64,000 nt of DNA from an uncultured Candidatus Saccharibacteria bacterium (GCA_964490245.1 CAZBAF010000001.1:120928-184927), one strand, 5' to 3'; shown: positions 26,881-32,369, numbered from the stretch's first letter. Notes: generated by a model from the letters alone, not told the origin. Program-made: numbers and translations.

Positions 26881-27308
26881 CTACGCTCTAATAGGAATAA
26901 TTAGAATCTTGCCGACTGATGAGTTCGCATTACCGCCAGAAGTACGTAGGAGTAAGCTGAACTGCTTCGTACCAGCTGTCACAGGTATAACGTCAATGAG
27001 TGCGTTTGTACCAGAATTGAATGTGTTTACAGAAGTGAATATGATTGTTTGACTATATGCAGTGCCGCCATCGTAGCGGAGTCGAGCGTATATATCTTTT
27101 TGTGAAGAATCTTGCCCTTGAAGCCTAACTGATCCCAAAACAAGAACGGCAGTACACCCTGTCGGAATATCGACATTTACGCTACCGACAGCTGTTTCTG
27201 TAGTACTGAAGTTCGAGCCAGACCATCCAGTTAATACGCCAATAGATGAAAGATCAAGTTTTTCCGGTATGATCGCACCAAGACCTACATGCCGTGTAAC
27301 GATTATTC
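26881..27308 (-). other. silent tail-fibre C-terminal cassette B (startless, begins at repeat b)
   Basis: Minus-strand frame open from repeat: …RIIVTRHVGLGAIIPEKLDL…KILIIPIRA*; ORF track shows its tail as 26881..27138. Confidence 0.6.
27288..27308 (+). repeat. shufflon crossover repeat b (inverted relative to a; 2 mismatches)
   Basis: CATGCCGTGTAACGATTATTC. Confidence 0.7.
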
Positions 27309-27320
27309 TGGCGAACGTGG

Positions 27321-27373
27321 TATAATAAGTTCAATAAACGCGGAAGCAGAAATGCAACCGCGTTTTTTTATTG
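27321..27373 (+). promoter_or_regulatory. TATAAT + hairpin + U-run unit, copy 6 (upstream of lysis genes)
   Basis: TGGTATAAT extended -10; AAACGCGG-(14-nt loop)-CCGCGTTT; TTTTTTTATTG. Confidence 0.5.
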
Positions 27374-27411
27374 GCAAATTCAGCAATATAGGGATGGGCA
27401 TGCAGGACAAC

Positions 27412-27681
27412 ATGGAACACACAACACCCACAAAAGACGAACTTAAGTTGATCATCGACAACTCGCTCTTAGAGCAGGAGAAACGATTGACTAAGACTCT
27501 TGGGGAAGCACTGCAAAATCAGAACAAGATCTATATGGAAAACATCTTAAAGCTGAGCGATAGGGTGACGAGGATCGAGGCGAGACAGGATAGCTTCAAG
27601 TCATTAGTGGCAACCGCCTCAGCTGCATCCGGCGTATTTTCGGGTTTGATAGGATTCTTTATCGCACAACTAACTAAATAA
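27412..27681 (+). CDS. XhlA-like lysis-associated membrane protein
   Basis: Coiled coil + C-terminal TM; AGGA RBS before ATG 27412 (in-frame alternatives 27394/27400); precedes endolysin. Confidence 0.45.
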   Translation: MEHTTPTKDELKLIIDNSLLEQEKRLTKTLGEALQNQNKIYMENILKLSDRVTRIEARQDSFKSLVATASAASGVFSGLIGFFIAQLTK

Positions 27682-27694
27682 GGAGTAAAGCGGC

Positions 27695-28855
27695 ATGGCA
27701 CAAATTACAGTAGCAGATATTAGTCGATGGCAAGGAGTAGTCGACTGGGATCAATTCAAGAACGCAATACAAGGCGTGGTTATCAAAGCTGGAGGTGCTG
27801 ATGCTGGTATATACACCGACCCTCAACTAGCGCGCAACAAAAGCGAGGCTCGACGCGTAGGCTTGCCGATATGGTACTACTGGTACAAGGGCGCAAGTGG
27901 CACAGCAGCGCAGCAAGCAGATGCTTTTATTGCTGCAATCGGTGACTTGCGAGATGGCGAGGCACTTGTGCTCGACGATGAAAATGAAGCTGTTATCAAT
28001 GTTTCATTTGTATGTGCATTTGCTGACCGCATCAAGGAGCGCACTGGTCGCAACATTGTGCTATACAGCAACCAAGCACGCTTTGTTGGCAATTTACAAC
28101 CAATCAAAGATCGCAACATCGGCGCTTGGGTTGCTAAATACGGCGCAAACACTGGCACTGTAGCTGGCGCTGGCGCAGCTCCTTCAATCCCAACTCTCAC
28201 AATCATTATGTGGCAGTACACAAGCCGTGCAGTGGTCGCTGGCGTCACCGCCAATACTGTAGATATGAACATTTTCTATGGTGACCAAAATGCTTTCCGA
28301 GCTTATGGAAACGGTAAACCAGTCGACGTTAAGCCATCACAACCGCAACTGCCAGCCCCTAACCCAATTAGCGGCACATACACGGTGGTCGCTGGAGACA
28401 CTCTATCTGGAATTGCTGCTCGCTTTGGTACCACATACCAACACCTTGCTGAGATTAATGGCATCGCTAATCCTAACTTGATTAAAGTTGGTCAGGTACT
28501 AAAAGTACCTAGTGCTGGTGTGTCTCAAAATACAGGCTTAAATGTTCAAGAGTACACGGTCGTCAAGGGTGACACACTTTCAGGTATAGCCGCCAAGTTC
28601 GGCACAACCTATCAGGTTCTAGCTCAAGTAAATGGCATCGCTAATCCTAATCTGATCTATGTCGGCCAAGTCCTGACGATTCCATCGACAAAGACCTCTA
28701 TACCAAGTGGCGGTACGGTGCATGTTGTTCAGAAAGGCGAAACACTCTCTGGTATTGCCGCTAAATACGGCACTACATATCAAATACTCGCCCAGCGTAA
28801 TGGTATTAGTAATCCTAATCTGATCTATGTCGGCCAAAAAATAAGAATTAACTAG
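27695..28855 (+). CDS. endolysin: GH25 muramidase + three LysM repeats
   Basis: N-terminal …[14 protein letters not shown]…GVVIKAGGA… GH25 pattern. Three ~45-aa LysM repeats (…[31 protein letters not shown]…). Confidence 0.85.
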
Positions 28856-28863
28856 GGGGGTAT

Positions 28864-29178
28864 ATGGAACTCTTTGTGCAAATCGTACAGCAAATCATCA
28901 CATACGGTAGCCTTGCTCTGGCTTCTGGTGTTGTAGCAAGCCTTTTGACTCAATTGCTAAAGTTTAAGTTTGTCCTCGCTCCAGCTAAGAGATGGCCGCG
29001 TACGGTCGCTGGTATAGTGTCCGCAATTGTGAGCGCTGCTGCAGTATCTACGTTGCCTCAGTTTGTGCTTGCGACATGGATTGACTGGGTGATTTTTGCA
29101 GGTGCTACGTTCGCTGTAGCAACACAAAGCTACAACCTAGTGCATGAGGCTATCAAAAATGCTAGGCAGGATCAGTAA
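28864..29178 (+). CDS. holin-like membrane protein
   Basis: 104 aa, multiple TM segments, directly after endolysin. Confidence 0.5.
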   Translation: MELFVQIVQQIITYGSLALASGVVASLLTQLLKFKFVLAPAKRWPRTVAGIVSAIVSAAAVSTLPQFVLATWIDWVIFAGATFAVATQSYNLVHEAIKNARQDQ

Positions 29179-30397: not shown

Positions 30398-30399
30398 TC
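30379..30399 (+). repeat. shufflon crossover repeat d
   Basis: GATGCCGTGTAACGATAATTC (+CAATTG extension). Confidence 0.75.
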
Positions 30400-30411
30400 A
30401 ATTGATTACGG

Positions 30412-30457
30412 TATAATTAAAGTAATAACGCGGTGCGAATGACCGCGTTTTTTATTT
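30412..30457 (+). promoter_or_regulatory. TATAAT + hairpin + U-run unit, copy 7 (upstream of 30468 operon)
   Basis: GGTATAAT; AACGCGGT-GCGAATGA-CCGCGTT; TTTTTTATTTG. Confidence 0.5.
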
Positions 30458-30467
30458 GGAAAGCACC

Positions 30468-31067
30468 ATGAATCAAGACAAATCAGCAAGACAATATGCA
30501 GTACCAGTTAGAGGCTCAATATGGGGTCTAAATTATAATGATCGCACCGAGCGTGACCTTCAGTATGTGTCTCCGCCCGGCAATTCTGCTGACACTGCCA
30601 AGTACTTCCCATATACATACGCATATGCGAACGTAACATTCCCACCTACAATTGGTGCGTCAAAAATATGTCCAATCCGCATACTCCAGCCACATTATGG
30701 CGAGATTATTGAGTGTTATGCTGACCTTCAGCTTACACCAGCAGCTGGAGATAGTGACCTCACGATGAAACTTGCGATTGGAATATTTGACGGCAGCTCA
30801 TACAATCCTGTCACAAACTACACAGACGAGGAAATCAATGCATCGTGGCGCAGAATACGCGGCAGTGATACGCCGCTCAGCGTTAGTGGTGGTGTCATAT
30901 CAGCAGATTTACTTGATCTTAAGAATGCGATACCTAAGTATGGCGACGACAACTACCGAGAGGATGCTTTTGTTCTGTTGATTGTATTCAATAAAGTGCC
31001 TGTCATATCTGGCGCATTCCACTTTAATTATTTGAATATTCATACTAGCGTTACGGGGGCACTCTAA
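30468..31067 (+). CDS. hypothetical protein (tail-fibre associated?)
   Basis: GGAAAG RBS before ATG 30468; listed ORF begins at TTG 30456. Confidence 0.45.
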   Translation: MNQDKSARQYAVPVRGSIWGLNYNDRTERDLQYVSPPGNSADTAKYFPYTYAYANVTFPPTIGASKICPIRILQPHYGEIIECYADLQLTPAAGDSDLTMKLAIGIFDGSSYNPVTNYTDEEINASWRRIRGSDTPLSVSGGVISADLLDLKNAIPKYGDDNYREDAFVLLIVFNKVPVISGAFHFNYLNIHTSVTGAL

Positions 31068-31591
31068 TGAATCAAGGTAGGCGCAACTTGGGATTTCCTA
31101 GCAACCAAACAAAGGGTGATGATTGGGGTTATTTTGCTGGATGTGGTGGTGCTGGTGGTGGCGGGTGTGTTGATCCTGCAAATTTCAGCTACATCTACTG
31201 GGGCATAAAAGTCAATCCTTTCTCGATGCACAACAGCAAGCTTGTGCTACTTAATGAGTCATTTAAGCCTTACACCGATTCATCAGCTGGATTTTGTGAT
31301 CACAACGCCGATCAGCCGCGTGGGTTCGATGTATTACTACTGTATAAGGCTCCAATTAGTGGGCTAGACCGCAGCAAAGCTACCAGCATAGTGACAATAC
31401 CTGCTAACATAACGCTGCCTTATGAGATTGAATTTGATTCGCAAGACATACCACAGCCAGATCATCCAGATTATGAGCGTCGAATCTGGGTTGCTCTAGA
31501 TATGTACACTAGCGGTCTTATGATCGAGGGTATCGCACAAAATACAGAGGTTATGAAAACCCTAAAGCTAAATTGGGAGGGTCGGCCATGA
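31067..31591 (+). CDS. hypothetical protein with Gly-rich loop
   Basis: Coupled ORF. Confidence 0.45.
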   Translation: MNQGRRNLGFPSNQTKGDDWGYFAGCGGAGGGGCVDPANFSYIYWGIKVNPFSMHNSKLVLLNESFKPYTDSSAGFCDHNADQPRGFDVLLLYKAPISGLDRSKATSIVTIPANITLPYEIEFDSQDIPQPDHPDYERRIWVALDMYTSGLMIEGIAQNTEVMKTLKLNWEGRP

Positions 31592-32082
31592 CTTTATCGA
31601 CGCGTAACCAAGAATATAAATACCAGTACAAGATTGTGTCTGTTGGTGGTGAGATTACTTTTTGCGGCAATGGGCCGACACTTATGGTGTCAGTACCAGA
31701 AAACCTACTCGACATAAAAGCAATGTTCATGCATGCCGTGCTGCAGTTTGACAATACAGTTCCAAGCGGTAACCGTAAAATACACTGGGCTGGCGGCGAC
31801 TATCCTATGACTCTCAACGGCATACCAAAACCAACCGAAGGTAACATGAAATACGTCAATCTGTCTGCAGATCCAGCCACTCGCATCGCAGATTTAAAAC
31901 TCGACATAACCGAACTTAAAGAAGGGTTTATGAAACAACTTGAAGATGACGCACCATTCGCATTCGACCAACAGAAAATAAATCTCAATCTAATCACCGA
32001 TATTGACGGTGGATTTGACGTAACAGGAAAGGTCATCTTATGGAAGGTAGATTTCGTATACACTACAAGCGGAATACAGTGA
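31573..32082 (+). CDS. hypothetical protein
   Basis: Coupled ORF. Confidence 0.45.
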   Translation: MGGSAMTLSTRNQEYKYQYKIVSVGGEITFCGNGPTLMVSVPENLLDIKAMFMHAVLQFDNTVPSGNRKIHWAGGDYPMTLNGIPKPTEGNMKYVNLSADPATRIADLKLDITELKEGFMKQLEDDAPFAFDQQKINLNLITDIDGGFDVTGKVILWKVDFVYTTSGIQ

Positions 32083-32369
32083 TACCGCCATCGCCGGGCC
32101 GCAAGCGAATCAAAAAAACGAAGCGATTCAACGGGTATCAACATCTTGGCAAAAAGATGACGTATAGCCCAAAGACTTGCGCTACGTCACGATGTATTTG
32201 GTGCGAGGCTCCTTTTGGTGGGCAGTTCCGTATCATATGCCCTGTGTGTCGTAATTGCCAATACTGTGGGCTTGCATCGACTGCAAGCCTTGCGAGCTGT
32301 CCAAACTGCGGCAATAAGCCTGATGACGATCTACGCGTCCAAAAGACCGTGCTGAGGCCAAGTCGTTAG
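32040..32369 (+). CDS. zinc-ribbon protein (multiple CxxC)
   Basis: CIWCEAPF…CPVCRNCQYC…CPNCGNK; its stop codon is followed directly by repeat e. Confidence 0.45.
   Translation: MEGRFRIHYKRNTVIPPSPGRKRIKKTKRFNGYQHLGKKMTYSPKTCATSRCIWCEAPFGGQFRIICPVCRNCQYCGLASTASLASCPNCGNKPDDDLRVQKTVLRPSR

Follow-up and report, generated by a model that had tools for sequence, protein, structure and literature searches.

We analysed a window of 64,000 nucleotides (nt), or 64 kb, from an uncultured Candidatus Saccharibacteria bacterium (GCA_964490245.1 CAZBAF010000001.1:120928-184927), which contains a temperate siphophage of about 37 kb. Downstream of the tape-measure, distal-tail and baseplate genes of this phage lies a locus that is a six-way C-terminus swap of a small tail-fibre / receptor-binding protein. 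The locus is probably a shufflon that exchanges the heads of the fibre, with two gene modules, a lysis cassette (M1) and a four-gene late operon (M2), being flipped and reordered as passengers of the inversions.

Crossover sites and exchangeable fibre heads

The locus is marked by the 20-nt sequence GAATTATCGTTACACGGCAT, which occurs in six copies of strictly alternating orientation and nowhere else in the 64 kb. Five copies are exact. None was obtained by chance in 100 dinucleotide-preserving shuffles, as against the 6 observed. For several pairs of copies the similarity extends to 25-42 nt. The sites are as follows.

26424-26443, + strand: site a, inside the tail-fibre gene, coding for (G)IIVTRH
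27289-27308, - strand: site b, with 1 mismatch
29623-29642, + strand: site c, with a TGA stop immediately upstream in the fibre frame
30380-30399, - strand: site d
32369-32388, + strand: site e, abutting the stop codon of the last M2 gene
33357-33376, - strand: site f, the last site

We refer to the side of a site that opens in frame into a C-terminus as its head side, and to the other as its tail side. At all six sites the fibre frame (G-IIVTRH) is open on the head side for 107-160 codons, leading into six different C-termini (Ct1 to Ct6). The constant N-terminal coding part, which is 40 amino acids (aa) long, is present only upstream of site a, and sites c, d and f have a stop codon directly upstream in the fibre frame.

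26303..26422, + strand: constant N-terminus (40 aa) of the tail-fibre / receptor-binding protein, 42-98% conserved in relatives
26423..26878, + strand: Ct1, joined to the constant part in the present isomer; weakly FN3-like
26881..27309, - strand: Ct2, silent alternative C-terminus, read from site b
29622..30059, + strand: Ct3, silent alternative C-terminus
30074..30400, - strand: Ct4, silent alternative C-terminus with a Gp53-like_C tail-fibre domain (PF21882, 30.3 bits against a cut-off of 24.9)
32368..32778, + strand: Ct5, silent alternative C-terminus
32892..33377, - strand: Ct6, silent alternative C-terminus with a C1q-like head (PF00386, 38.7 bits against a cut-off of 23.7)

The six sites bound three cassette pairs (V1, V2 and V3) with the two gene modules in between, which gives the layout C0-a-V1-b-M1-c-V2-d-M2-e-V3-f-C1, where C0 is the constant part and C1 the integrase side. 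The tail sides face C0, both ends of M1, both ends of M2, and C1. In having six alternating short repeats, where a shufflon in the sense of plasmid R64 has four or more, and C-termini placed in frame for exchange, the locus agrees with this class. A preliminary description of the stretch had placed a lysis cassette between b and c and a four-gene operon between d and e, each with a promoter unit of its own, and the six sites and the open reading frames (ORFs) bear this out.

27309..29622, + strand: M1, 2.3 kb, bounded by the tail sides of b and c
27321-27366, + strand: promoter-like unit of M1, with TATAAT at 27321 and a stable hairpin plus T-run to about 27366
30400..32368, + strand: M2, 2.0 kb, bounded by the tail sides of d and e
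30412-30455, + strand: promoter unit of M2, with TATAAT at 30412

Recombination between any two oppositely oriented sites would invert all the DNA between them. By breadth-first search, 384 isomers can be reached in this way (3! × 2^3 cassette arrangements × 2! × 2^2 module arrangements), and every C-terminus can be combined with every module orientation. Expression of Ct2, Ct4 and Ct6 takes one step and that of Ct3 and Ct5 two. Of the nine possible single steps, six (a×d, a×f, b×c, b×e, c×f, d×e) flip at least one module: b×c and d×e flip one module alone, a×d flips M1, and a×f both flips M1 and M2 and swaps them. Since Ct3, Ct4, Ct5 and Ct6 reach the constant part only via inversions that also flip M1, or M1 together with M2, four of the six heads are unusable without at least transient movement of M1, and module inversion appears intrinsic to the system and not an accident of it. 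With the present data, events b×c and d×e cannot be separated from chains of inversions in each of which site a takes part, because such prefix reversals give the same states.

A rival explanation is that inversion in this phage is confined to the three local pairs (a×b, c×d, e×f) or is absent. M1 and M2 would then act as fixed spacers, V2 and V3 would be silent stores or remnants, and the module flips found in relatives (described below) would be rare old accidents and not routine events. The layout argues against it: V2 and V3 lack a constant N-terminus and have stops directly upstream, so that local inversion would never express them, yet each of the four C-termini in them is still an intact ORF in which a receptor-binding domain can be recognised, and all six sites are intact.

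Flipping would be tolerated by modules that are transcribed autonomously, each from a late promoter-hairpin unit of its own, and such a unit is indeed found at one end of both M1 and M2. It consists of TATAAT, a gap of about 9 nt and a AAACGCGG-loop-CCGCGTTTTTT hairpin, and recurs at 7111, 18212, 25712, 27321 and 30412, so that five late gene blocks are each preceded by a copy. The copy ahead of the tail-fibre operon (25712..25764, + strand) reads TATAAT-N9-AAACGCGG…CCGTGTTTTTT with the hairpin. From this distribution the unit may well serve as the late-operon start signal of the phage, and the gaps between late operons, just ahead of a promoter unit, appear to be where the cassette pairs were inserted. 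Expression of the modules is then presumably independent of their orientation. No regulator acting on the late promoter-hairpin units was identified. The order of a promoter box before a terminator-like hairpin recalls the promoter/terminator pairs of lambdoid late operons that are read through by an antiterminator.

A further hairpin element lies between the convergent Ct5 and Ct6.

32790..32886, - strand: long-hairpin unit, the same element that fills the otherwise "empty" spacer of the related contig L003

This element spans ~100 nt and consists of a TATAAT-like box followed by a hairpin with the core GGGTTTGCAAGGTGCTTTGCCCC (dG -40.8 kcal/mol, z -4.3). It is also present in related contigs at L003 2187-2286, L012 12520-12610, L005 1195-1310 and L010 13850-13900. 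Its function may be that of a bidirectional terminator or of a small RNA; Rfam contains no family for either the promoter-hairpin units or the long hairpin.

Module orientation in related phages

The same 20-nt site was found in related Saccharibacteria phages from metagenomes. A metagenome scan with the site relaxed at one position gave five contigs, and homologue look-ups with the tail fibre, the recombinase and g1, the first gene of M2, gave about 20 further loci. All loci were annotated by tblastn searches with proteins from the window and by scanning for the site. Exact scans for GAATTATCGTTACACGGCAT in genome contigs and viral contigs produced no match, and the single hit of a relaxed 18-mer in the viral contigs, on a 150-kb contig, was judged to be due to chance. 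Searches of an annotated phage collection by megablast and tblastn gave no match for the locus, g1 or the recombinase. A baseplate profile search returned nothing from the viral contigs and only L016, which is free of a shufflon, from the genome contigs.

The 20-nt core is invariant or nearly so at 44 sites, synonymous positions included, and both flanks diverge; the phages that share these sites are only 65-82% identical in DNA. A constant core between varying flanks is typical of a recombinase recognition site. This pattern bears on the idea that the inversions arise by homologous recombination between 20-40-bp inverted repeats, for example through a phage RecT, with no site-specific recombinase involved. 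The phage does encode RecT (PF03837, 3e-50), several repeat pairs are similar well beyond the core, and no dedicated invertase besides the integrase was found. Homologous recombination would not maintain exactly 20 nt with a sharp loss of identity on both sides in phages that are 20-35% different elsewhere, which is the signature of a site recognised by a protein, and it would also delete DNA between the direct repeats a, c and e. We consider it very unlikely.

Both modules occur in both orientations among the relatives.

L010 (1.09-Mb JGI genome contig): C0, a, V, (-), M1 on the opposite strand, (+), V, (-), M2 forward, (+)
L011 and L005: V1 immediately followed by M1 in inverted orientation
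L004: M1 in inverted orientation with respect to C1
L021: C0, a, V1, (-), M2 inverted
L012-14 (three separate runs): M1 forward and M2 inverted, in an identical arrangement
L017, L018, L003: the same alternating sites with gene-free spacers of about 125-135 nt

M1 thus lies on the strand opposite to the tail-fibre gene in L010, L011 and L005, and is forward in the window, L006 and L012-14. M2 is inverted in L021 and L012-14, and forward in the window, L006, L010 and L017. Blocks of nucleotide homology end exactly at the sites, and every junction obeys the rule of head and tail sides. In L002 and L004, which are 94-97% identical, the last cassette pair is oppositely oriented, with the breakpoint in the site. 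The proposal made in the preliminary description that the modules flip as units, promoter included, agrees with these arrangements, and in L010 the promoter unit has remained at the XhlA-like end of the inverted lysis cassette. For the phage in the window, no isomer other than the present one is on record. The spacer of L003, when read directly, is a promoter/hairpin unit.

Contig ends provide a further indication. Eight of 41 lie no more than 45 nt from a site, against 0.9 expected (P about 2e-6); they belong to L003, L008, L012-14, L017, L018 and L019. The excess suggests that the sampled populations contain more than one isomer, so that assembly graphs fork at the sites.

As all relatives are metagenomic contigs, many of which end at sites, the module orientations might be mis-assemblies at the repeat. 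The same inverted arrangement, however, was obtained in independent JGI, Logan and ENA data sets, that of L012-14 is the same in each of its three runs, and every junction fits the head/tail grammar, as would not be expected of random joins. At 20-24 nt the repeat is shorter than the k-mers presumably used in the assemblies, so the junctions should be supported by reads. Mis-assembly is therefore extremely improbable as the source of the orientations.

Phages of this group without a shufflon give the likely reference order. Contigs L027 and L028, of 37-38 kb and without sites, encode a g1 that is 61-65% identical to that of the window. On one strand they carry baseplate, upstream gene, tail fibre, g1-g4, small genes, XhlA-like ORF, endolysin and holin, with the XhlA-like ORF called by position and size and the holin by homology in L027. 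M2 is accordingly placed before lysis in these phages, in contrast to the window, where lysis precedes M2. Given the shufflon, the order in the window can be reached, since b×e or a×f swaps the two modules. Counter-oriented lysis or M2 modules were found in site-bearing genomes only.

Several observations weigh against module inversion in the phage of the window, most of which would also be expected if only local inversions took place. No alternative isomer of this exact phage was found, and only the present one is recorded. Proteins predicted by joining the constant N-terminus to Ct2, Ct3, Ct4, Ct5 or Ct6 gave 0 of 5 exact matches in a collection of 15 billion proteins, in which the present fibre form does occur, and contig L023 likewise confirms the present tail-fibre form only. 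Sequencing runs in which this phage occurs include SRR35086859-61, SRR7082966, SRR7082976 and SRR23005565. The near-identical partial contig L006, which reaches the neighbouring modules and matches at 96-99% identity over M2 and the integrase side, agrees with the window in the orientation of both modules. The relatives with flipped modules are different, diverged phage species (65-82% DNA identity), so the flips could be old. Degenerate shufflons also occur (c and V2 are missing from L006, and b, c and d from L012), so that not every lineage need be active. On the other hand, both modules are found in both orientations in several independent lineages, always within the site grammar, and contigs break at the sites. 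Restriction to local inversions is thus unlikely, and the reading in which the modules travel as passengers of a shufflon is preferred. The present phage probably still inverts, judging from its intact sites and frames.

We examined L006 as a possible inversion isomer and rejected it, because the head side of its d site (1437-1456) is truncated to IIVTRHLGS followed by a stop, in violation of the site grammar; it is a deletion of c plus V2. Neither this deletion variant nor that in L012 has a site-to-site junction. In L012 (10283-10400) the lysis promoter unit directly follows the stop codon of Ct1.

Gene content of the modules and the candidate recombinase

M1 carries five ORFs behind its promoter-like unit.

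27394..27681, + strand: 95-aa ORF with a coiled coil and a C-terminal transmembrane segment
27695..28855, + strand: endolysin with GH25 and three LysM domains (PF01183 2e-23, PF01476 2e-57; phrog_291 3e-76)
28864..29178, + strand: 104-aa membrane ORF, holin-like (weak Hol118 match, E=0.42)
29144..29305, + strand: 53-aa membrane ORF
29307..29591, + strand: 94-aa ORF, questionably HNH-like

The endolysin combines a catalytic domain (GH25) with cell-wall-binding domains (LysM), as expected for a lysis cassette. Whereas this label of the preliminary description held, those of the holin and of a zinc-ribbon protein in M2 found weak matches, and the names XhlA-like and HNH had no library support: the two ORFs gave no match in Pfam (E up to 10), PHROGs (E up to 0.01) or NCBIfam, and the HNH ORF none in a sequence search of the PDB. 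The 53-aa ORF had been missed. Its frame differs from that of the holin-like gene, whose 3' end it overlaps. It terminates in ...ADCRRP and is conserved, as part of the cassette end, in L003, L005, L006, L010 and L011; in relatives, too, the 104-aa and 53-aa membrane ORFs adjoin the endolysin.

M2 carries four genes behind its promoter unit.

30468..31067 (alternative start 30456), + strand: g1
31067..31591, + strand: g2
31573..32082, + strand: g3
32040..32369, + strand: g4, Cys-rich, with a TAG stop directly abutting site e, as had been described

Judged by gene order, M2 is a conserved late operon whose usual place is between the fibre gene and the lysis genes. None of g1-g4 has a family match in Pfam, PHROG or NCBIfam, and paralogy within the module was not apparent, as g1 and g2, and g2 and g3, share no detectable sequence similarity. 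Only 40 homologues of g1 were found, all within this phage group, and g2 matches 32 cluster representatives. One of these representatives is the 4350-aa protein P0198 from a metagenome library, which has 12 repeats of a domain resembling residues 105-155 of g2; the sequence likeness hints at an adhesin-type repeat domain. In g4, four CxxC pairs are present and the zinc-ribbon match is weak (E about 0.009, below the gathering score). Reading of g4 through site e into Ct5 was considered and rejected, because the frames differ and a TGA stands upstream in the fibre frame.

Structure models cover g1 and g2. AlphaFold predicted a jelly-roll beta-sandwich for both, with a predicted local distance difference test score (pLDDT) of 88 and a predicted template-modelling score (pTM) of 0.85 for g1, and a pLDDT of 86.5 for g2. 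The fold of g1 weakly matches carbohydrate-binding modules (best), DOC/APC10 domains and C-terminal domains of tail fibres and spikes, and that of g2 weakly matches polyphenol-oxidase C-terminal, capsid and Eph-receptor jelly-rolls; all these matches have E of 4e-3 or worse and a template-modelling score (TM) of 0.41 or lower. The suggestion that the M2 proteins are U/U'-like fibre chaperones, as in Mu, was not upheld, nor was a likeness to those of the P2 G type, given the missing family matches, the jelly-roll models of g1 and g2 and the conservation of the operon in shufflon-free relatives. Our best guess from position and predicted fold is that they may be accessory distal-tail or glycan-binding proteins.

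Two genes and an attachment site lie on the C1 side of the locus.

33533..33856, + strand: 107-aa winged-helix DNA-binding protein (phrog_9773, 2.8e-10), between the shufflon and the recombinase gene
34284..35240, + strand: Xer-like armless tyrosine recombinase (PF00589/XerC-like), starting about 900 nt after site f
35473..35550, + strand: attR, a hybrid tRNA-Thr(GGT)-like sequence; phage DNA ends near 35514

The recombinase abuts the attachment site (att) and by position is the prophage integrase. Its homologues are named Candidatus Saccharibacteria or Caudoviricetes proteins, and no match to an Rci-specific family or at equivalog level was obtained. The winged-helix gene is kept together with it in L002, L004, L006 and L016. 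The extent of the phage follows from two junctions: L024 joins window positions 34334-35514 (recombinase and half of the tRNA-like sequence) through 1.5 kb to window positions 1-2622, and L026 shows that the window's own genome carries the same 1.5 kb to its left. Together they define a phage of about 37 kb integrated at tRNA-Thr(GGT), with the crossover near GAGCACTT. Near 36 kb the guanine plus cytosine content rises abruptly, from some 46% to some 53%.

The inversions are presumably catalysed by a tyrosine recombinase, most likely the single Xer-like integrase of the phage. No second site-specific recombinase was detected among the early ORFs, among the reverse-strand ORFs or in the 1.5-kb circle closure, the structural and other late ORFs not having been scanned individually, and no serine recombinase (resolvase/invertase domain) was present in the ORFs tested. 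L024 was rejected as evidence for a second recombinase, as it contains the same gene and the contig is the circular/attP junction. Two properties speak for a primary role in integration: the gene adjoins att, and it is also present in the shufflon-free L016. The att core differs from the shufflon site. Among three options we tentatively prefer that the integrase doubles as invertase, at a little short of even confidence; a host recombinase acting in trans and an unrecognised enzyme remain as the others. The combined proposal, that one Xer-like recombinase integrates at tRNA-Thr and also drives a six-site, module-flipping shufflon through two unrelated site types, is doubtful. If it were true, the orientation of the lysis cassette relative to fibre read-through (co-directional or convergent) would be a heritable, reversible variable, and a lysogen population would be mixed in host range and lysis behaviour.

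The anticodon-loop sequence CCATGGTAAGGA (35500-35525, just past the att crossover) shows a short gapped likeness to the CCGTG-TAACGA of the shufflon site. This weak resemblance (CC.TG.TAA.GA) may be due to chance, and would be relevant if one recombinase serves both. The hybrid tRNA-Thr(GGT) at attR consists of a phage-borne pseudo 5' half and a host 3' half, joined at GAGCACTT, and is called by ARAGORN and not by Rfam at the gathering score. In the attP or circular form a complete canonical tRNA-Thr(GGT) is located about 50 nt beyond attP, and this phage tRNA could replace the disrupted host tRNA. The stretches concerned are 35473-35550 of the window, L024 1150-1300 and L006 6380-6530.

Two genes upstream of the fibre gene have conserved positions. 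The 175-aa gene directly upstream of it (25776..26303, + strand) has same-position homologues that are 41-73% identical in 9 related phages, with an identical copy in L023. A CHAP gene (24971-25804, - strand) is the only reverse-strand gene in the tail module, and its place and strand are conserved in relatives; in its product an N-terminal membrane anchor and a low-complexity linker accompany the peptidoglycan-hydrolase domain, which is of the CHAP type (E 1e-5).

Relation to known inversion systems

The shufflon of the IncI1 plasmid R64 is the closest system by mechanism. Its tyrosine recombinase Rci acts on sfx sites of the pilus adhesin gene pilV, any inverted pair can recombine to give many isomers, and the segments contain two convergent C-terminal ORFs. 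The locus described here shares the multiple repeats of alternating orientation, which like sfx are asymmetric. In R64, in contrast, the segments are adjacent and free of unrelated genes, the target is a pilus adhesin instead of a phage fibre, and inversion is the sole task of Rci.

Of the systems described so far, the Rin shufflon of the Bifidobacterium prophages Bb423phi1 and Bl157phi1 (Mavrich et al., 2018; PMC6109161) comes nearest. In it a constant N-terminus of the receptor-binding protein is joined by inversion at short asymmetric repeats to unrelated C-terminal heads, with variants seen in both prophage and virion reads (PMC6109161). As in Rin, we found a temperate siphophage with cassettes that are each preceded by a crossover repeat, and a gene for an armless, Xer-like recombinase of the tyrosine family adjoining the locus. 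The Rin variable genes are contiguous, whereas here the cassette pairs are split by modules of 2.3 and 2.0 kb. The Rin invertase is dedicated to inversion and distinct from the integrase, while a single recombinase was found here, at att. The sites are unrelated as well (11-bp TTCCCTAACCC in Rin, the 20-nt GAATTATCGTTACACGGCAT here), and the hosts belong to different phyla.

Host range is also varied by inversion of tail-fibre C-terminal DNA in Mu (Gin/G), P1 (Cin/C) and p15B (Min), the last having six crossover sites and many isomers (as summarised in PMC6109161). These systems use a serine recombinase and their invertible DNA holds only fibre and fibre-assembly genes, unlike the DNA inverted here, which includes a lysis cassette. 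Lysis genes and a late operon as passengers of inversion were not found described for any inversion system, and the literature search gave no paper linking Saccharibacteria with a shufflon or invertible fibres. The present locus works like a shufflon, but its cassettes are dispersed, essential modules ride along as passengers, and one recombinase may serve two uses.

Programmed inversion systems usually appear in descriptions as compact switches confined to the variable gene, whereas here essential, unrelated late genes are built in. The occurrence of the modules in both orientations and both orders in nature indicates that late modules with their own promoter can be independent of orientation and order. 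In this locus gene order in a virus is naturally reshuffled, probably by a recombinase, which also raises the question whether a single integrase serves as invertase too. Shufflons of receptor-binding proteins driven by a tyrosine recombinase, which in the searched literature were restricted to Bifidobacterium prophages, are extended to phages of the Saccharibacteria. These bacteria are an ultrasmall episymbiotic lineage of which the phage biology is almost unknown. The six interchangeable heads, among them a C1q-like and a Gp53-like one, suggest that the surface receptors of these hosts, which are hard to culture, are varied.

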